Below are positions 5,600 to 63,070 of a DNA stretch of 64,000 bases, one piece after another. How positions within the stretch are numbered: position 1 is the first letter of the stretch; every line of letters begins with the position of its first letter. The DNA is from Octopus vulgaris. Its lineage: Eukaryota. The notes beneath the pieces are model-generated. The model saw nothing but the letters and a program-made list of their open reading frames with translations. It was not told the origin of the DNA and did no database searches. Where the stretch lies: assembly GCA_951406725.2 (NCBI GenBank), contig OX597832.1, positions 4,154,001 through 4,218,000 on the forward strand. Direction: 5' to 3'. Position numbers and translations under genes: made by a program.

Positions 5600-7124
5600 C
5601 TAAATTGAATTTGACGATGAATTAACTAAAGCCAACTTCTTAGACATTACCCTCAATTTGCAGAATAACTCATACTTCCCTTATCATAAACCTTCCACAA
5701 ATCTTAAGTATATTAGCATTTTCAGTAATCATGCCTGGCCAATTACCGATAATTTAGTTAAAAACATATCTCTGAGACTGTCCAAATTATCTGCTAATGT
5801 CGACATATTTAACCAAAAGGCAGACTTCTATAACGCCGCCTTGTTAAGAGCCGGTTATAAGGAGAAAGTGTCATACATCGACTCAGCTCATTCTAAACCA
5901 ACATCTGCTTCTCCAGATAGTAAAGTTACTCGTAATAGGAATAATGATTTCAATTCTAATAGTGCCGGCAATCCTGTACATAAAATAAATTCTTTACGGA
6001 CTAAGGGAGGTAAGCGCCATGCAACCCCAAATTTCTAACCCAGAAAATTTCCCCTTACTATCACAAATAACACTAAGAACAATTCAAAGGCCACAAAAAA
6101 CTGTATCTGGTTCGTAATACCTTTCGGAAAACAAATTAAATCGAACCTTCCCTTACAGTTCCGTGAAGCCGTTGCTAGGAACTTTCCCAGAAATTCTAGA
6201 TATCATTCTATTATCAATTCCCACAAGGTCAGAATCGCTTTCACTAACACTAGGAATCTTTCACAAATTATATCTTCCCACAATACCAAGCTGCTAAACA
6301 AAGATTCTTCACCCGGGAGTTCCAACACTAATCTTGCTAATTCCAACCCACCATACAATCATAATAATAGGAATAGTATTAATAGTAACAGCATTGGTAG
6401 CTGCGAAAGTGTTAACAACGATAATATTAATAATAGTATTAGTCGTGTTAATAACAATGATAGTGTTGATGGTACCATTGTGTTCCCCTAGTAAACGCAC
6501 TCATAGAAAAATCATACAAATGTAAACACTGGCAGAAACACACTTTCTACTCATATAAATGATAACGATAGTCACTGTGGTTTGAACAATTAGCTTTACG
6601 TCCACCCCACTTCTATAGAGAAATTCTTTCCTAAGCCTGCGAACATTCTTTCAATCAACGTTCCCTTCCCTCTCCACTTGTTCCCTACCTATTATTCCTT
6701 TGACCCTTCTCTTCCTACTATCTATCTTTGACGTCAATTCTTCTAACGGTTTTTTAAAAAAAACACTCATTATCGCTTTGTTTACCATGTAGGCAGTCAT
6801 CGAAATTTTTGTTTGTCTTGTTGTCGAGAGAGGCTCCCTTTCTTTCCTGATGAGAAGATTGCATAATGCACCCTTTATTCCTTTGGAATGAAAAAATGTT
6901 GTCTTCGAAACATATGTCGAGAGTAAAGGAATTTTGTTAACATCTTCGTTCGACTCCATTCTTTCATTTATTCATATACAACACACAAATTTCTGCACAT
7001 GAACCCGGAGTTTCTACCCTTGACAGGTCGCTTCAACCGTGTTTCTGACGTGAATTTGCTACGCAGGTTTCGGTTAAACGAATTTTCCATGTTGACGATA
7101 AACATAGGATAATTCATTCACCTA

Positions 7125-8049: not shown

Positions 8050-9020
8050 TTTCTTTCAATTTTGGAGAGAATCTTTTGATGAAATGTAGTTCCATTGCTT
8101 TTCGGTATTGCGGATCGTCCCGAGCACATTTGTAAAAGGGAAAAATTTTGAATTTTCCGTCGTCACATATTTTCAGATGCTTACTTTATGGAATCTCGCG
8201 TAATTCTTCTTGTCGGACATGTTGCCTGTGGATTATTGCACGTTGGCAGAGGGAATTATTTGTTTCACCAATGTAATTTTCTTTGCACTTTGGGCAGGTA
8301 ATGCAGTAGATGAGGTTTTGCGTTTTGCAGTTCATATCTGCATTTATTTTGAAAAGGGATCCGCTCTTGAATTTTATGTGGGAACCACTTTCCAAGTATT
8401 TGAAGTTGTTGATATTGTTGCATGTTCCACAACTCATATCTCCACGTTCTTTTACTAAGAATTTTGATTCATTCTCTGATTTCAATTCTGCCCTTGTGAG
8501 GTGTTTTTTAAGATCTTTTGGTTGGCGTCTGCTGTTCCGTAAGGTGTTTTTTTCAATCAGAGTTTTCATTTTGGGGCTTTGTAGGAGTATAGGTAAGTTC
8601 GATTTTATAGAGTGAAAGATGTTGGTTATTCCAGGACTGTGTGTGTTAATGAACGGAATAGTGTTTTCATTAACATTTTCCTTAGGTGTCCGTTTCATCA
8701 CCTTTTTAATTCTCTCATTAATTAATCCTAAGGGGTATTTCTGCATCGTTGAGTCGGATTTCATGTATTTTGGGGCCTGTTTACTATAGCACAGATGCGT
8801 CTTGCCATGCTGTATGGGATGATTCTTTTGATTCTGTTGGTTGGCAAGAGTAAAAATTTAAATATTGGTGTATGTCAGCTTTTTTTGTAAAATATGTCTG
8901 TTGTGACTATTTTTTGTGGATATCCAGGAATGGTAATTCATTGTAACTAGATGCTGTCGTGAATTTGATGGATGGGTGAAGTGTGTTCAGTATATTGTTA
9001 AATATATTCAGATCTTCATT
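8050..9020 (-). mobile_element. Penelope-like element remnant (RT thumb, Cys-rich linker, GIY-YIG endonuclease)
   Basis: Upstream LNTLHPSIKFT...LPFLDI. ORF 8186-8764 contains CGTC and NLIYCITCPKCKENYIGETNNSLCQR..HRQH. Confidence 0.9.
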
Positions 9021-9600
9021 CGAGTATTTTTTTTCTCGAGCATTTAAGTCCCTACGTGCAATCATTTCATGCCCTCGTCAGAGGAAGTACTTCTTAAGAA
9101 CATTTATACTACTTACCACGCACACGTTAAACTTTGTGCGTATCGTTTTGATCATACTTGACTATAATACTACGAATATAAAATATCAACCTTTAGATAA
9201 TTACCTATTTCTATCCCGTAACTGTCAGCTTCCGTAACATTTGGTATGAAAGAAAACGGTGAGAATTCGAACCTCCTATGCATAATAAATTTTCCGAGCA
9301 CTGTAGCATGATTATTATATTATATTTATGTCCATCTATTAATTTTCGACCTGTTTTAATTTTCCTACTCACCAAGTCTTCATCCCCGCAACCTTGCATT
9401 TCTCTTTCAAGCGTTCTAATAAACCTTATGTATTATATTTTCATACACAAAGCATTATCACTCCTACAATCAGTAATCATGCTTAAATATCGTTCTAGCT
9501 TAACACATTTCGTTAATCATTTTCTTTTCTTCTCCTTTCTCATTGTCTTTCCATGTCCAGCTAATTTACTCCACTCAGCATCTATCTACATAAACGTATA

Positions 9601-9830
9601 TATTTCTTTACTGCCCACAAGGGGCTAAACATAGAGGGGACAAACAAGGACAGACAAAGGGTTTAAGTCGATTACATCGACCCCAGTGCGTAACTGGTAC
9701 TTAATTTATCGACCCCGAAAGGATGAAAGGCAAAGTCGACCTCGGCGGAATTTGAACTCAGAACGTAACGGCAGACGAAATACGGCTACGCATTTCGCCC
9801 GGCTTGCTAATGTTTCTGCCAGCTCACAGC
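9601..9830 (-). mobile_element. SINE family A with Tx1-type tail
   Basis: Head gagctggcagaaacattagc...gagttcaaattcc. 16-bp TSD tctacataaac(g/a)tata at 9585-9600 and 9831-9846. Confidence 0.9.
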
Positions 9831-10289
9831 TCTACATAAACATATAAATACACGTAACTTTCTCAATGTTCAACTTGTCGTTTTCTTCCCTTACCCTCTT
9901 CTCTTTATTTCATTGTCCCCACCATAACTTTCTCAATTACTCTACCTATATCTTCCTGGCCTTAGTCAAACAGCTTATTTCCTGCTTTCCCCCTTAATAC
10001 ACTATATATTTTATTTAACATTAACCTTTTTTTTTTTTTTCTGAATCTCATTCTTTGCCTCTGACCTTTCCTGTTTTCCTTTTCTTTCTTTTTTTTCGCC
10101 GTGTTTCTGTTTGCTTCTTTCCTTTCCTCTCTTTTACTCCTCATCACTTCTTCCCCCCCACTTCCACTTATACCTTTCATCACATGCAAGTGATAGATCT
10201 GTGTGTATATATGTAAGTACTTATATGTGTGTGTGTGTGTGTGTGTGTGATGTCTTTCGTCATGGTCGACACCGACGGACGAACATTAT

Positions 10290-11271: not shown

Positions 11272-11488
11272 CATGCAACGTCAGAAATTTAACGAGATTC
11301 ACTTGCTACGTCTTCCATTTTGTAAATCTTCAAGTATTACCTACAGACACATTCTTCGGTATTATGTAAATACACCTTTGTATAAATGTAAGATATGAAT
11401 AAATATAATAAATGCATGGAAATACATATTTATTTGTATGGTCTTTCTTGTCCACGAATGCAACCTCTCACCAAGATTGCTTAATATC

Positions 11489-11901
11489 TATTTCTTTATT
11501 GCCCACAGGGGGCTAAACATAGAGGGAACAAACAAGGACAGACAAAGGGATTAAGTCGATCACATCGACCCCAGTGCGTAACTGGTACTTATTTCGTCAA
11601 CCCCGAAAGGATGAAAAGCAAAGTCGATCTCGGTAGAATTTGAACTCAGAACGTAACAGCAGACGAAATACCTATCTCTTTATTACCCACAAGGGACTAA
11701 ACATAGAGTGGACAAACAAGGACAGATAAATGGATTAAGTTAATTATATCGACCCCAGTGCGTAACTGGTACTTAATTTATCGACCCCGAAAGGATGAAA
11801 GGTAAAGTCGACTTCGGCGGAATTTGAACTCAGAACGTAACGGCAGACGAAATACCGCTAAGCATTTCGCCTGGCGTGCTAACGTTTCTGCCAACTCGCC
11901 G
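11489..11901 (-). mobile_element. Head-to-tail dimer of SINE family A
   Basis: A full unit is followed by a second unit lacking the first ~47 nt. Degenerate outer TSD ending cttaatatc at 11474-11488 and 11904-11918. Confidence 0.9.
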
Positions 11902-11961
11902 ACAGGTTTCTTAATATCAAAGACATAATAATGTGACTCCCACAATACTATATTTTACTGT

Positions 11962-43045: not shown

Positions 43046-43077
<32 letters not shown>

Positions 43078-43078
<1 letters not shown>

Positions 43079-43291
43079 TTTTCTACTATAGGCACAAGGC
43101 TTGAAATGGCGAGGAAGGGCACTAGTCGATTACATCAACATCAGTGCGTAACTGGTACTTATTTCATCGACTCCGAAAGGATGAAAGGCAAAGTCAACCT
43201 CGGCGGAATTTGAACTCAGAATGTAACGGCATACGAAATACGGCTACGCATTTCGCCCGGCGTGCTAACGTTTCTGCCAGCTCGCCGCCTT
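43078..43291 (-). mobile_element. SINE family A (tail ...ttgtgcctatagtagaaa)
   Basis: Intact head ggcggcgagctggcagaaacgttagcacgccgggcgaaatgcgtagccgtatttcg. Confidence 0.9.
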
Positions 43292-49495: not shown

Positions 49496-49849
49496 TTGAC
49501 TATATTTATATCTATGTATAAAACAAATTATGAACAGCGCTTTATTTCCAAGACATTCAATCGTAAGTAAAGATTTTCTGAAGTATTAATTATATTTTAA
49601 AATATCAAAGGCGGCGAGCTGGCAGAAACGTTAGCACGCCGGGCGAAATGCGTAGCCGTATTTCGTCTGCCGCACATGTGTTCGTGGTAAAAATTGTTGC
49701 TTCTTGGTGTTAATATTGTTAATAACTGCTGTTTCTAATAACTGTTGTTTCTTGTTAAACTGTTGAATAACTTAACTGTTGGAGTTTTCATTTGAAAACA
49801 CTTAGTGCTTGTAGTAGCACGCGTTGTTCATTCCCCCTTTGGGGGGAAG

Positions 49850-51384
49850 AATGTCGTCTAGCATGGAGCCTACTGTTGGAGCAGAAATACTTGTTTCTCC
49901 TGTTGAGAGGAGGAAATACATGTCCGGCGAGGAGCCAACTACAGACAGGGAAATAAGGGTTTCCCCCGCTACAAGAAAGAATAGCAGAATAGATAATATA
50001 TTTGATTTTTTTGGAGAGCTGTCTGAAAGCTCGTCAGAAGTTTCACCAGAAGAGTTTCCGACTTTGCCAGAGAACAAAGGCATTGTGTCGAAAAGAATAA
50101 TTGATGTACCTAGCATCCAGACAGAACCAAAAAATGGGAAAAAAAAGTTTTGCGTTGGCTGCTGGGGGTGGAACCCGGCTGCTGTCGACGAATAAAAGCG
50201 ACTTTATGAAATCCAGCCAAATGATGAAAATAACTGACAACGTTGTGAAAATTGAACCTCTGCAAAAGTTATTACAAGAAGAAAAGCAAAAAACAATAAT
50301 TTTCAAAACATATTGTCTACAAAAAAGAAAAATTGAAAGAATGTCAGAAGAGAAAATAGAAAAGTGCTTAAAGCCAATATGGGGCGACGTAGTTTATCTG
50401 AGAAGAGGCAAGAAATTCGGAACGGTGGAAGTAAGGTTCACCAATAAAGAAATAGCACACAAGAACTCAGTAGAAACGCTGAAAACGAACGACGTGGAGC
50501 TCATCCCCTATAATATATGGGGATGAGAACGTCCAGAATAAAAATTACAAGGGTCCCCCCGGAAGTGGTCCCTATGTGGTTGTTGGCAGCAGTCCTAATC
50601 GAAGAGGTAGAAAAAAATTACTCTCCTCCAGGCTACCGCTACGGAAAACCCACGCTGGGATGGTCAAACAATTAATCTTCTCATTCAAGCGGACCCTAAA
50701 ATAATTCAAGCAATTCCCGAGACAATTGAGGTAGGGGAGGAGAACCTCGTGGTGTTTGTTGAGGGCCGAAAACCTCGATGTTTTTTATGTGGTCAATTAG
50801 GCCACATTCGAAGGAACTGCAAGGAAAATGAAGAAGAGGAGGAAGAGGAGAAAAAAGACAATTAGGAAGAAGAAAAAGAAGAAATAGATGAGGAAAAAAC
50901 AACAAACAAAAGGAAAATACAACCAGCAACTCAGCCGAGAGCGGCGACTACAACAGAACAACAACCAAAAAAGACTGCCAGAAGAGAAAAAGAAGAAAAA
51001 GGCATAATAGCCGTATACACTAAAGATACTGAGCTCATGAGAGACATTCAACTGATAAAGACTGTAAAAAAAATAGATAACCTTTCAGAGGAATTTATCA
51101 ATTACGACATATATGAAGTCTCAAATAAGACTCATAGAATTTTACAAGACAAATACAGAAAGACAGTATCTTCATTGAGATTAGATTTTAACAAGTCGAT
51201 ATTTCATGGATTACCAGCCCCGATCCCGCGAGAAAAGGAAAAGGTGGAGATTCCCCCTCCACCTGATAATTCTGTGTCGGTGGTGAGACGGGATTTTGAC
51301 AAATCTATTTCCCAAGACCGTCCACCTCCAACCCTGGATCAAAAAAAGGTGGAGGGTCCCCCTCCACCGGACAATCCTGATTAA
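49850..51384 (+). pseudogene. Tx1 ORF1 (gag-like, CCHC knuckle), frameshifted
   Basis: RRM-like KFGTVEVRF region, then GRKPRCFLCGQLGHIRRNC at about 50764-50820, then an acidic/Pro-rich tail. Confidence 0.85.
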
Positions 51385-51395
51385 ACAGGTAAGTC

Positions 51396-54300
51396 ATGTC
51401 TATTCACATTGGTTGTATAAATGTTCGTGGCCTGTTGTCAAGCTGGAAGCAAGGACGCTTTCTAAATGACATCAGGTCGAGAAATTTGGATGTAATTGTT
51501 GCAACGGAAACCCGGGTGAAGGGGCCAAGAGATCTGCTCCCTCTCCTGAACGGCTACGAGAAATACGTTTCTCCTAGTCGGATGGGAGGTGGGGGTGGGG
51601 TGTTGGTCCTACTAAAAAGAAACCGGGTAGCCGAGAAAAAGTTGGTTTTTTCCGACCCAGAAGACAGGCTGGTTGTTCTCGACAATCAGTTGTGACAAGA
51701 CAATCAGGCTGGTCGCTATTTACGCACCAAAACATTATTGGCCCGCAAACTGAATATTTTCGTGACCCGGGAAAGTTCCTAGCCACGTCGCATTCACTAG
51801 TAGTGTTAGGAGACTCTAATACAATATGTGCAGCACACACAGATTGTGTTGGCTCGAGCTCGAACATGAACAGAAAATGTAACCCAGGCTTTCGTGATCT
51901 GTTAAGTCAATTTCAGCTAGCAGATCCATATAGGTTGGAGCACCCGAACACTCCACAGTGGACATGGTCAAATAGTGACGGGTCTACCAGAACATATCTA
52001 GATAGGATTTTAATTAGAGAAAAAGATAAGTCCATAGTTGAGTGTCCACAGTTTTTTCTAGTCAGCTACAGTGACCACAAGATGGTTACCTGTAAACTGA
52101 CGGTAGATAAGTTGCATAGACAGGGATCCGGCTACTGGAAACTCAATACGTCCCTTTTGGCGATTGAGGAGTACAGAAAGCGGATCAAGATGTTAATACA
52201 GAGGGCATTAACAGGTACCATCATTAATAACAAATGGTGGTACGCCCTAAAAAGAGCCATCAAATATGAGTCTATTAGGTTTAGCATAAGTTTAGCTAAG
52301 AAGGGACGTAAAATAGGAGATGGTCTAGTTAAGGAACTAGAAGAAACCTGGAGGACTGGTAATACAGACCGAGCGAGGGTGAAAAGACTGGAGTTAAACC
52401 AGCATCTTGAAGCCCACCACATGGGAAGTATTGCCAGAGCTAAGTTACGTGCAATGGGAAGTGAAGGAATCAAGGCCGCTAGATGGGCCCGAGTGGTGGA
52501 AGCTCGGCAAGGAAATAGTTCCTCTATTCGGTCTTTGACGAATCAAAATGGTTTCTTGGTAAACGAACCCGAGATAATGTGTGAGGTCTTTCGGGAGTAC
52601 TTCGCCTAGCTGTTCGGGGGTGACGGCGGTCCTGGTGGTGGGAGAGCCCTCGAGGACTTTCTTGCCGGGCTGCCGTGCCTCTCGGGGTCGGGTGCGGAAT
52701 CTTGCGAAGGGCCAATCACACCTGAGGAGGTGACGGAGACTTTGGCCGATTGTAAAGCGGGTAAGTCACCGGGACTTGATGGTCTTCCGTACGAGCTGTA
52801 TAAATGTATGCCAGACTTGTTCGGGCAACTACTGACTGACGTGTACACGAACTGGAAACAGAATGGGTTTATCCCCAGATCTGTACGCCGGGGAGTAGTG
52901 ACGTTGGTTAGAAAGGACCCGGACAAGGGGGACGTTCTAGAGAATTTCAGACCCATCACTCTGTTAAATGCAGAAGTGAAGATTTTGGCCAAGATTCTAG
53001 CAAAAAGGTTGGCGCGTGTCGCGAATGGTATAGTCGGGGAGGCACAGACATGTGCTATCCCAGGCAGAACCATTCAGGATACCCTCCATCTTATTCGCTA
53101 TACCATAGAGAGGGTTGGTAATAAATCTGGTAAAGGTGGGGCATTGGTACATTTGGACCAGTCTAAAGCTTTTGATAGGGTTGACCATCGATACCTAGCG
53201 ACTGTACTTGCGCGGTTTGGCCTGGGTCTTGGCTTCCTCAGGTGGTTTATCGCTTTGTACCACAACATTGACTCGATAGTTCGGGTGAACGGTTTCCTTT
53301 CGAAGCCGTTCTGCATCAAACGCTCGGTTCGTCAAGGATGTCCGCTTTCACCACTTTTGTATGTGATGGCTCTCGAGCCATTACTGCGAAGGTTGAGTGG
53401 TATCCCGAGAGAACCAGGACTAGAGGAGTTTGTTACGGCTTTCGCGAATGATATCACTATCAGTGTAACCACAGTAGCACGCCTACGTGAAGTAGGTAAG
53501 ACTATTGAGGCTTACGAGGAGGTAGCAGGAGCAAAGATTAACCGGGAAAAGTCGGTCGGCTTGCAACTCGGTACCTGGGTCGGCAAGTCGATGCCTTCAG
53601 ACAGCGTTGTTGGGCGCTGGACGGAGGGACCGGTTAAGTTGCTGGGAGTCTGGTTTGGACCAGGCCTCCAGATAGAGAAGAACTGGACGGAGGTATTGAG
53701 CAGGGTGGCTGCAGTAGTCAAGACCTGGTCTTGGCGGTGGCTATCCCTGAAAGGGAGGGCGGAGGTGGCCAGTCGCATCGGTCATTACCTACCGCCTGAC
53801 CGTCGTGCCCTGTCCGGATTCGTGGTTAATCAGGTTGGAGAGACAGCTCTTTCGCTGTTTGTGGAAGGGCAGTCGCCACTTGTGAAACGCTCTGTCTGCT
53901 GTCAAAAGCCTTTAAAGGGAGGTTTAGGGATGCCTTGGTTAATGATGCGCAGACATGCATTGAGGTTGAGGCACCTCTGGATTCTCCTGGATAGTGAACG
54001 GGTGTGGTCTCCGCTAGCCAGACAAATGTTCCCTGAGTTCAAGAGTTTTTGCGAACAGGAAGCCTGGTGTTCTCGTAGACCGAGGTCGAGTGAGTGGCAT
54101 AAAGAGTGCCGTAAGGCCCTCTTGCTGTTCCGGCGCTCGGGCAACGCCAGCGGTGGGGGTTCCACACGGATTTTATATAGTGGGTTGGTAGAGTCTGAAT
54201 GCGACGATGGCCTGGGGTCGACTCTAGGTCTCGGATTTATTTAACTGGACAGCTTGTTTCATCGTACATTCGGGTTGAGAACGTTGGACAACTTCCAAAA

Positions 54301-54788
54301 GTCGTTAACCTGGCAATGCTACAGAGGTGCCTTGCCCGTTTGGGATAAGCTCGCAAGACATGGTAAACGTCAGTCGCCGACCTGTCCAAGATGCGGGGCG
54401 GGACAGGGAAACCGTCCCACACGCTATTGTTCAGTGTCCGGAGATAACTGAAATGTGGGCTTATGCTGAACACCTGTTGTCCGGCGAAGGAAGAGTACGG
54501 CTGTCGACTGAGTCAATTATAAAAATTGACCCACCGGGATTTCTAACGAACGAAGGTAAGAATTGTTTTCTCACGGTTGTAGCAATAGCAAAAGAGGCAG
54601 TATGTAAGACTAGGATAAAAGGAATTAAGACAGGCAACTTTATCTCTGGTCACAATTTACGATCTTTTTTTTCTTTTCATTTGAAAAGGAAACTGTGGCT
54701 GGAGAAGAGGTGTCTGTCGGAGTGTACGTTCCAAAAGAGATGGAAGCATGTTGCACGAGTGTTGTGCGTGAAGGAACTGTGTGAATAG
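51396..54788 (+). pseudogene. Tx1 ORF2 (APE endonuclease + RT + C-terminal zinc finger), disrupted
   Basis: GCINVRGL, ATETR, RTYLDRIL, SDHKMV, GYWKLN, KSPGLDGLP, FRPITLLN, LDQSKAFDRVDH, VRQGCPLSPLLY, FANDI (catalytic D to N), CPRCG..ETVPHAIVQC. Confidence 0.93.
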
Positions 54789-56035
54789 ACGGGAAAAAAA
54801 GGAAAAATAAAAAGGTATCAGCGGTAGATCGGGGCTTGTGGGATCGGAGCGTAACTTGATCATCGCTTCATTTGTATTGTTTCTGTACTGTGTATTCCAT
54901 TCGATTTTTTATGTACTGTATTTTATTTTTAAAGTCACATTTATGTAAAATCATATCGATTCACTGATCCCATCAGTTGTACTGTCCATATCTATGTTTG
55001 GCCCCCGGTGGGCAATAAAGAAATTCGTATTTCGTCTGCTGCTACGTTCTGAGTTCAAATTCCGCCGAGGTCGACTTTGCCTTTCATCCTTTCGGAGTTG
55101 ATAAATTAAGTACCAGTTACGCACTGGGGTCGATGTAATCGACTTAATCGGTCTGTCTGTCCTTGTTTGTCCCCTCTGTGTTTAGCCCCTTGTGGGTAAT
55201 AAATATATAATTTAAAATATCAACGGTATGCAGTTTGAGAACCACCGAATTTTTAGTAACTTAAAGAAAATCTCCGATAATTATAGGTATCCGCAAATTG
55301 AGTCACTGGGAGTACACCTTGGTCTTACTTTAGATAAGATATCCATTTCTGCTGTTCTGCTGGCTTCTGTAACTTGCGTGTTTCACTTATTGTCGCAAAT
55401 GACTGCATCAGTTGTTGTTGCGTGTGTATATTTTGGAAAATTTGCTTTTGTGCATGAAATATCGCTTTTTTCTTTTTTTTTTTTTTTTTTTAGTTTAAAT
55501 GTCTGATTGACTTTTTGGGTACTTACGTCAATATTTTCCTACGATTGGCGTGGTACATTGTTTGCACAACCTCCTTGAAATACAATATCTCGTCATTTTG
55601 AAGACTTTGTCAAACGTTTGAGACAGTGGTTCTGAAATGGTTCGTTGACAAGGGTTTCTAGGCATGACAGGAATTTTTAAAGTATGATTTAAGCCTTATA
55701 TGTTTTATTGTCTCTTTTATTAATAAGGAATTTCGTAGTATAATAAGGGACGATACGTAGAATGATATGGAATTAAATTTTTTCTAGCCGCTTGAATTCT
55801 AAAATGCTCACATTATGTCAATTGCCATCAAGAGATGTAGAGTTTACATCGGTTTCATTTGTTATCCGATATACTAAGCGAAATGTCCTGTTGATGCAGT
55901 CGTCCTTGCCCGCTGCGCAAGTTGAGTTTTGGGGTATCCTGGTTAGGTGATGATCCTTTGCAAAATAAAATTGGTACGTACATTTGTAGACAGCCCAGTT
56001 TCGATGTATGAATATCGAAAACAGTTGCGGTTTCT

Positions 56036-60084: not shown

Positions 60085-61062
60085 TATAAATAGATGAATG
60101 AATTATCCTTTGTTTACTGTTAACATGGAAAATTCAATAAACAGTTACCAGGGTAGCAAAATTCGCGCAAGTAACAAGGATGTAGCGACCTATTCAAAGG
60201 TAAAAACTCCGGGTTAACGTGCAGTAATTTGTGTAGTATAAGTAAATAAATGGAGTTGAACGTAGATGCTATTCAAATTCTTTTACTTTCGACATATTTC
60301 GAAGACAACATTGGTTTTATTCCAAAGGAATAAACGGTGTAAATGCAATCTTCTCATCAGGAAAGAAAGAGAGCCTATCTCAACAACAAAACATTATAAC
60401 AATTTTGATGACTGCATAAATTATAAATAGAACGTTATTGAGTATTTAAAAAAACCGTTAGTAGATTCGACGTCAAAGGCAGATACTAGAAAGATAAGGA
60501 GTAAGGAAATGATAAGTAGAGAACAAATAAAGAGGGATATATTGGTTGAAAAAATGTTCAAAGGCTTGGAAGTAGATTTCTCTATTGAAGTAAAGTGCAA
60601 GTTAAACTAACTGTTCAAACTATAAGGACTGGAAAATCACTATGTTCTGCCAGTGCTTACATTTGTAAGATCGCTTTATAAGTGTGTTAACAAGGTGATT
60701 CTTAGAGAAGAGAATATGGAAGAGTTCAGAGTTGCAAATGTTACAAAATCTTTTGCCCTTATCATATGGAAAAGATATGGACAGGATGAACCAATCTAAT
60801 TTAAAATCCTTATTGTTGTCTTTAAGATACCAAACCAATTTACTTAGCCCTGTGCTTTGACGTTTACTGCTATCCCTAAATGAAGAATAATGATTGGAAA
60901 TTCTCTTAGATAACTGGCGAGAGGATGCACCAATGTAGAAGTAGACATCGGTACCGCAAGAAATTTTACATTGGTATATAGAATTCTTGATCTTAGAATT
61001 ATTAGACAAAAATTTAATTCTGTTGGGGTTGTCCTCAGAGACCAAAACCATGTTTTTATTGC

Positions 61063-61116
<54 letters not shown>

Positions 61117-61245
61117 GTGAGGGGCTGGAATTAACAAAATTAATGTTGGAACTCCCAGAAAATGAACAATGTTGTCTTCGAAACATATATCGAAAGTAAA
61201 AGAATTTGAATAGCATCTGCGTTCAACTCCATTTATTTACTTATA
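60085..61245 (-). mobile_element. Penelope-like element 3' part (GIY-YIG, pLTR, inverted partial pLTR)
   Basis: NSIYQCKI...FYIGASSRQLSKRISNH...CNICNSE. 61167-61245 is an inverted copy of about 60236-60313. Confidence 0.9.
60286..60365 (-). ncRNA. Type I hammerhead ribozyme (second copy)
   Basis: Reverse complement ctttc-CTGATGA-gaaga...tcttc-GAAA-tat-GTC-gaaag. Confidence 0.7.
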
Positions 61246-61799: not shown

Positions 61800-63070
61800 A
61801 TATATCTTGACTTTGCAAAGGCGTTTGATAAAGTCGATCATGGAATAATATGTCACAAACTGCGTGATCTTGGCATAGTTGGAAAATTGGGAGAATGGCT
61901 TCATGACTTTCTGAAGGATAGAAGTCAGGTGGTAGTAGCCAATGGGGCCACCTCCAATAACACGCAAATAGTGAGCGGTGTTCCGCAAGGCACTGTTTGA
62001 GACCACTACTGTTCATAATGGCCCTCTCAGACATGCCCTCAGCCACGCAGAGAGCCACGATCACAAGTTATGCAGATGATACAAAAGTTTCACAGGTAAT
62101 ACAGGACCCTGAAGACACTATGCACCTGCAATGTGAGCTGGACAAAATATACAAGTGGGCTGAAAAGAATAGCATGCAGTTCAATGCTGAAAAGTTTCAA
62201 GCTTTATGCTATCAGCATGCAAAACTAAATGCAATACCCAATAAATACACTGGACTTGGAGGGATTGCAATCCCAGAGGCACAATCAGTGCGAGACCTGG
62301 GTATTTACATGAGTAATGATGCAACCTTTCATGTGCATGTTGCTAAATTGGCAATGAAATGCAGGCGGCTGACCGGATGGATTCTTAGAACCTTTAGAAC
62401 AAGCGACCAGGAAACCATGATGGTCCTCTGGAGGACACTTGTCCTAATCCACTTTGACTATTGCTCTCAGCTATGGTCACCATTCAGTGTCAAGTTAATC
62501 ACAGAACTTGAGGCGATCCAACGAAGCTACACGAAGAAGATAGCTTCTGTGCAGCATATAAGCTACTGGGAAAGACTCAAGAGATTAAGACTCTATTCCT
62601 TAGAGCGTAGGCGAGAAAGATATGCCATAATATACATCTGGAAGATCCTGGAAGGACTTGTCCCAAACTTTGGCATCGAGAGTTACATAAATACTAGAAC
62701 TGGGCGCCACTGCATAGTGCCAAGGACTCCAAATTTGCCATCAAGATGTAGGACAAGATACTGTGATAGCCTGAGCTTCAGAGGTCCACAGCTCTTCAAT
62801 ATCCTCCCGAAGGACTTGAGAGACCTGCATGGGGTGGATGCAGATGTCTTTAAAATAAAACTGGATGTCTTCCTGTCAGGTGTCCCAGATGAACCAACTT
62901 TACGGCAGGAGGTGCAGATGAGGTCAGCTGCATCGAACTCTCTCATGCACCAAATGGCAATTGCTAAAAAGCATTCGTGAAGTAAAATCATGTAGCAACA
63001 CCGAATGGCGGTGCCCCAGCATGGCCACAGCTCGTGAGCTGAAACTAGATAAAATAAAAAATAAAAATAA
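61800..63070 (+). mobile_element. 5'-truncated CR1-group LINE (RT + 3' tail)
   Basis: YLDFAKAFDKVDH, SGVPQGTV, YADDTK, VRDLG, DYCSQLWSP, LYSLERRRERY. Tail followed by (AAAAT)n. Confidence 0.95.

Follow-up and report, generated by a model that had tools for sequence, protein, structure and literature searches.

A SINE dimer of Octopus vulgaris probably formed by insertion of a Tx1-tailed SINE into an older SINE at the target site of a Tx1-like LINE

We propose, with a probability of roughly 0.85, that a SINE dimer of Octopus vulgaris arose by site-specific, target-primed insertion of one SINE into an older member of its superfamily, by means of the machinery of a Tx1-like LINE. The dimer lies on the minus strand (11474–11918) of the window, i.e., the whole 64,000-nt stretch analysed here (contig OX597832.1, positions 4,154,001 to 4,218,000), to which the coordinates refer. 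The junction between the units is fixed, the tail is a common one, only Tx1-tailed units stand upstream, the hosts are older, independent and drawn from three families, and the target-site duplications (TSDs) of off-target copies are GGTAT-like. A sequence-only reading of the same DNA had suggested that site-specific nicking generates tandem SINE arrays; the fixed junction and the Tx1-tailed upstream units agree with this, while nicking of the SINE head by the Tx1 endonuclease is a probable event deduced from sequence and some adjacent pairs turned out to be local duplicates.

Structure of the Dimer

The whole dimer is enclosed by the outer TSD of the host SINE, 15 bp in length, whose copies GATATTAAGAAACCT on the 5' side (11918–11904) and GATATTAAGCAATCT on the 3' side (11488–11474) are identical at 13 of 15 positions. 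Between them, the SINE head (positions 1–47; 11857–11903) is followed by two units of 184 bp, which is the period of the dimer. Unit 1 (11673–11856), likely the inserted copy, extends from head position 48 to a Tx1-type tail ending in ...aataaagagata, and unit 2 (11489–11672) likely corresponds to the body and tail of the pre-existing host. Unit 2 starts with ggtatttcgtctgctg, that is at head position 48, directly after tagc, and the junction tail|GGTATTTCGTCTGCTG carries the second copy of the 16-bp target (11657–11672). We take the motif at 11893–11882 in the head to be A-box-like, and GAGTTCAAATTCC at 11831–11819 inside unit 1 to be B-box-like, both having been matched by eye to the consensus. 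ARAGORN reported 0 tRNA genes and Rfam gave no tRNA match at E ≤ 10.

The two units differ by 12.6% from each other and by 7.7% and 8.2% from the consensus, values too close to tell which one is older, and none of the eight rare variants carried by each is common to both. The order in which they arrived is read from the family-wide age polarity described below, according to which unit 2 would be the older.

A long hairpin is possible in the SINE tail at 11666–11735 (minus strand), with the read-through GGU closing it (z −3.7). When tails were compared, the three SINE tails folded at z −1.7 to −3.7 and the Tx1 tail no better than shuffled sequences (z +1.1). The heptamer TACCTAT, complementary to the junction, is present in one SINE variant.

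Logan contigs from other animals were compared with the dimer (X2, X4, X7, X13) and with the Tx1 copy (X2, X6, X13, X14); none of them spans either element, and X13 shows only the host 3' end at the orthologous place. At 11674–11714, the ratio of summed contig depth over the junction to that over the tail is about fivefold lower in run X13 (organism E) than in three other runs, depth not being equivalent to copy number.

SINE Families and the Tx1-like LINE

The SINEs of the window belong to three related families, here termed T1 (Tx1-like), T2 and T3, which have head and core in common but differ in the tail. The T1 tail of dimer unit 2 is shared with the LINE: over the last 34 nt, 32 are identical to those of the Tx1. 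T1 SINEs are dispersed, with TSDs of 11–21 bp and 113,916 tail matches genome-wide, as counted with a pattern that omits ends having A at one position; in the window, a monomer of the Tx1-tailed SINE lies off target, flanked by a 16-bp TSD (9597–9838, minus strand). A further SINE (43066–43290, minus strand) joins a T1-type head and body to a T2 tail and may represent a heterodimer collapsed by recombination. The T3 tail motif also occurs in a 115-bp satellite that forms long arrays at C1:5.37–8.51 Mb (L201–L220). Mariner transposase fragments (Pfam) and the reverse transcriptase (RT) of another LINE are among the intervals 2454–2936, 6039–6491, 8186–8857, 60620–61222 and 61961–62980; Penelope-type elements, judged by likeness and with no Pfam match, are presumably also among these five.

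On the plus strand, a host SINE head with the 5' copy of a 16-bp TSD (49610–49672) precedes a full-length Tx1-like LINE of 5,353 bp (49673–55025), whose ORFs are broken in this copy, and the 3' TSD copy follows with the remainder of the host SINE (55026–55205). The LINE thus sits between cgtatttcgtctgccg (49657–49672) and cgtatttcgtctgctg (55026–55041), i.e., at head position 48. The sequence-only reading had placed the dimer joint and the Tx1 insertion at the same nucleotide, and both indeed start at position 48; its spacing of 38 kb holds if measured to where the Tx1 begins (5' end), whereas the two 3' junctions lie 43 kb apart.

An open ORF2 of 1134 aa is preserved in the sister copies L107 and L117. 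In L107, Pfam recognised Exo_endo_phos (2e-10), RVT_1 (4e-29) and zf-RVT (2e-7), corresponding to an N-terminal APE endonuclease, an RT and a C-terminal zinc domain, and the closest PDB match was human L1 ORF2 (1.8e-64). ORF1 of copy L099 showed a CCHC zinc knuckle (zf-CCHC, 8.7e-5). The top named homolog was the 'Transposon TX1 uncharacterized 149 kDa protein' (P0013, 2.4e-90). Domains and best named homolog are the grounds on which the element would be assigned to the Tx1 type, and we refer to it as Tx1-like.

Insertion of this LINE is sequence-specific, with a TSD of 16 bp: a genome-wide pattern search retrieved 89 Tx1-type 3' ends which, classified by eye, lie at head position 48 in 84 cases (94%). 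The remaining five comprise one that is itself a SINE copy, one in a decayed head, two whose TSDs open with GATAT or GGAAT, and a distant relative. The off-target TSDs begin right after ...gaaatt of the element, so that the nick position is where it had been placed from the sequence alone. When the 3'UTR was used as a query stopping 36 nt before the junction, all 30 best matches, which include the window copy and one duplicated pair, ran into position 48 (28 cleanly, one with substitutions and one with a short deletion). Older Tx1 copies occupy T1, T2 and T3 hosts and also stand ahead of other LINE copies. Among 5'-truncated copies, the head is kept in L126, L276 and L278, and 12 of those examined have no head upstream, for which a deletion of the target is needed.

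Most young Tx1 copies chosen by their 3'UTR (L091–L129) are full length, which is unusual for LINEs. At L272, L274, L275 and L276, a Tx1 3' end and the target 14-mer are followed by one common non-SINE sequence, with which a further element probably begins, in head-to-tail stacks at the site. Copies L273 and L274 (2.3 and 3.2 kb) combine a Tx1 tail with a divergent 5' part and an internal loss, are full-length at the site, and are possibly non-autonomous passengers.

Position of the Junction across the Genome

The exact junction of T1 tail and site has 19,510 matches genome-wide, and the reversed control none. Of 140 T1 tails parsed by script in loci not chosen for their junction, 54 lead into position 48, seven into position 15, three into other positions and 76 into no SINE, the last class being inflated by 20 loci fetched as off-target. 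Junctions are hence not scattered along the SINE, the outcome that a histogram proposed in the sequence-only reading was meant to detect: 54 of the 64 tails leading into a SINE do so at position 48. Classification by eye among the tail matches listed (100) gave 52 at the site, three at the second site and 45 without a SINE after. About half of the T1 SINE ends lie outside SINEs, at degenerate GGTAT-like sites.

The same reading had expected only Tx1-tailed units in the upstream position, and this was found. No T2 tail leads into position 48, either in the fetched loci (0/56) or among the T2 matches listed (0/100), and neither does any T3 tail (0/43), a figure resting on tails in fetched loci since the genome-wide T3 tail pattern is swamped by the satellite.

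The second junction site (site B) is at head position 15, at AGAAAC, where tail|AGAAACGTTAGCAC has 1,797 exact matches and is about 11-fold rarer than the junction at position 48 (site A). As judged by eye among the matches listed, a GGGC tail variant is present in 85/100 site-B rows vs 7/100 site-A rows. No age polarity was seen at site B (7 vs 10 of 20). Behind site B (L303–L326) there may be another Tx1 family, or else a lineage guided by RNA.

Age of the Joined Units

In T1-into-T3 dimers, the downstream unit is the more diverged in 13/13 cases (0.137 vs 0.049), 11 of which were retrieved with a pattern in which the 21 bases following the junction were fixed. The pairwise divergence of T3 hosts (0.225) equals nearly that of free T3 monomers (0.229), that of the upstream units being 0.080. 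The downstream unit is also the older in 23/29 T1-into-T2 dimers, and in 10/12 when the test was repeated with unselected T2 hosts (p = 0.002). An older downstream unit together with a host diversity like that of monomers argues, in heterodimers, for insertion in place and not for an inherited dimer; the same age asymmetry and host diversity do not fit an Alu-like dimer, with equally old arms and a dimer master. Polarity is weak in T1-T1 dimers (29 vs 34; in 19 dimers that look independent, 7.3 vs 5.4 rare variants, p = 0.07), as expected with host and cargo of similar age, which leaves room for some of them having moved whole.

Comparable figures were obtained for 31 Tx1 copies, namely the 33 of 39 that could be parsed minus two with truncated hosts. 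Their Tx1 ends differ by 0.019–0.028, their heads by 0.097 and the downstream SINEs by 0.110, so that the flanking SINE halves are 4–5 times more diverged than the Tx1 they enclose. Distances of Tx1 and of its host SINE are uncorrelated (r = 0.05), whereas those of the Tx1 5' and 3' ends are not (r = 0.82).

These data bear on the possibility that a dimer, or a composite of head, Tx1 and SINE, originated in a single event, or in a few, and thereafter moved as a whole by retroposition, the junction being inherited. Outer TSDs do flank entire dimers, C is found at head position 48 in 31/31 scored young Tx1 copies vs 30/99 T1 units, most of these Tx1 copies are full length, and the small asymmetry of T1-T1 dimers would be compatible with the movement of some as a whole. 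However, an inherited composite accounts neither for downstream units of heterodimers as diverse as free monomers behind young upstream ones, nor for SINE halves that are older than the enclosed Tx1 and unlinked to it. In addition, rare variants common to first units of different arrays are at background level (P for at least three = 0.000), and the 5' end of headless truncated Tx1 copies and the downstream SINE end have no TSD linking them. Whole-unit retroposition is largely refuted for heterodimers and for Tx1, and as a general origin we hold it to be very unlikely.

Target Recognition

Off-target SINE TSDs could be called at 23 of 63 ends; they measure 11–21 bp (mode 16), with lengths centred on 15–17 like the 16 bp of the LINE, and their 5' copies match GGTAT at 3.09 of five positions vs 1.31 expected. 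Junctions in old-type hosts read GGTAT in 255 cases and GGCAT in 16, whereas intact old-type heads, among the matches listed (100), are 19 T : 81 C (81% GGCAT). Since junctions are rich in GGTAT though intact heads are mostly GGCAT, GGTAT is selected in the DNA. Rewriting to GGTAT templated by the RNA was not supported, the 3' TSD copy differing toward GGTAT in five and away from it in six of the 23 off-target TSDs; one on-target case, L271, fits such rewriting.

A 5-base GGTAT cannot alone explain why about half of the SINE ends and 94% of the Tx1 ends are in SINE heads. The extra determinant could be a longer recognition sequence, 5' homology or Pol III factors.

The 5' Joint and Replacement of the Host Head

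A plain insertion would leave the host head, a TSD and a complete new SINE, but the 5' joint is seamless. In T3-hosted arrays, T1-type bases at the TSD position open the first unit in 10/11 cases, and head column 19 is T1-type in 6/11 vs 1/18 T3 monomers, the heads being mosaics. Host-type bases are back by +13 in 10/13 members of the unselected T2 set. With its arrival, the new SINE takes over part of the host head, and what results is a full-length, young SINE whose front site is intact. At Tx1 loci, the divergence of the heads falls toward the junction from 8.7% to 1.7%, and C-type SINE units behave likewise (12.5% to 2.5%); this gradient was examined to see whether the 3' part of the head derives from the element, and the distances of heads proved uncorrelated with those of the Tx1.

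Overwritten heads are also what would be seen if Tx1 cut the site and recombination nevertheless did most of the spreading, monomers being converted by a dimer already present or by its cDNA. Heads are overwritten in part with variable switch points, T is favoured at junction +3, T1-type bases open some T2- or T3-tailed hosts (L017, L180, L068, L231), and ectopic gene conversion from existing dimers can produce a similar structure. On the other side, most hosts are back to their own sequence at +13, which leaves little 3' homology, and off-target TSDs of 11–21 bp with a GGTAT-like start indicate that the SINE uses a nuclease of that preference. Spread mainly by recombination is, in our opinion, highly improbable.

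Long 184-bp arrays exist, and at least three rare variants are shared in 3/24 dimer pairs and 9/31 pairs from longer arrays, some only 0–0.5% apart, so that neighbouring units are locally duplicated, as in a SINE-derived satellite, in 12/55 adjacent pairs outside the window dimer; yet slippage or unequal crossover of 184 bp from a monomer is scarcely credible as the general origin, as it cannot yield heterodimers whose last tail is of another type, nor would it place the breakpoint constantly at position 48 and in agreement with the Tx1 junction. Local duplication is a secondary process in longer arrays, and it is refuted at the window dimer, whose units, 12.6% apart and with 0/8 rare variants in common, are two independent copies; the tandem duplication that the sequence-only reading had named as a possible objection is thereby ruled out here.

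Proposed Mechanism

According to the preferred reading, insertion of the SINE at the Tx1 target, the Tx1 endonuclease would make two nicks, one in the bottom strand at tagc|GGTAT and one some 16 nt farther along in the top strand. The SINE RNA, primed at its own Tx1-type tail, would be copied by the LINE RT, and the homology between cargo and target would let the cDNA head anneal to the host head, giving a seamless joint and overwriting part of the latter. The outcome would be a head, a new unit and an old unit with a 184-bp period, and the intact site at the front of each product would make insertion repeatable; unequal exchange may lengthen some arrays, and off-target SINE insertions would seed fresh landing sites for the LINE.

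A more speculative extension, which we regard as doubtful, is a self-feeding LINE–SINE loop in which the passenger is the target, off-target copies act as pads for Tx1, on-target copies re-arm decayed sister heads and the choice of site is inherited via read-through bases at the RNA end, sites A and B being RNA-guided lineages. If such read-through guidance were true, SINE RNA should end in ...AAAUAGGUAU(UU) or ...AAAUAAGAAAC and not in ...AAAUA.

Insertion of SINE into SINE would explain a large class of 184-bp arrays in the genome, and what repeat libraries list as dimer 'subfamilies' may have arisen by insertion.

Comparison with Known Systems

Octopus OR1/OR2 CORE-SINEs (Ohshima and Okada 1994, as described in PMC4824008 and PMC4758252) are likewise tRNA-type octopus families, and from these descriptions their names are a lead for the SINE families of the window; the window SINE motif had no match in the available paper texts and in two supplement files of PMC4824008. 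The main text of a 2026 octopus repeat annotation (PMC13282606) reports active L1-Tx1 and SINE families and, in that part, gives no target specificity. In the titles and abstract openings of the literature searched, no LINE targeting its own SINE was found.

SINE multimers are frequent, amounting in one case to about half of the Dip copies in a jerboa, and satellites can derive from SINE parts (Vassetzky 2023, PMC10702118). The multimers in the consulted portion of that work are full-length or internal duplications, ascribed to recombination or same-locus insertion, and, unlike the octopus SINE, are described there without a fixed internal cut site or a LINE sharing it. As for the joint, in the available part of PMC3774820 (Eickbush 2013), R2 cDNA is postulated to pair with the upstream target, to which it is homologous, giving uniform 5' junctions. 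R2 with upstream 28S sequence in its RNA thus offers a postulated annealing like the one that would occur at the SINE head, although R2 is of another clade than the Tx1-like LINE, has an rDNA target and carries a ribozyme.

The closest published system, in the sections of PMC4494074 (Kojima 2015) available to us, is that of crocodilian Tx1-Mar and SINEU-3, where a Tx1-clade LINE and a passenger SINE have one target in another repeat; Tx1-Mar and SINEU share a target in Mariner, and tandem SINEs 'sandwiching a TSD' are ascribed to sequential insertion. The target of Tx1-Mar, however, is a Mariner DNA transposon, whereas in the octopus it is the head of the passenger SINE itself and of its sister families; and the SINEU tail is poly(A), whereas the octopus SINE has its tail in common with the LINE, and homology gives a seamless 5' joint. 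The same sections mention Xenopus Tx1L in Tx1D, Keno in U2, Kibi and Koshi in microsatellites and Tx1-9_AMi in Harbinger, likewise endonuclease-determined insertions into multicopy DNA; no target given there is a SINE that its own LINE mobilises. The LINEs known to be target-specific use multicopy genes of the host, microsatellites or transposons unrelated to them, whereas here the passenger makes the target, so that the abundance of the target can evolve jointly with the specificity of the enzyme. Events on and off target that can be dated number in the tens of thousands and offer a testbed for the gain of specificity by an APE-type endonuclease and for the 5' joining of homologous cDNA.
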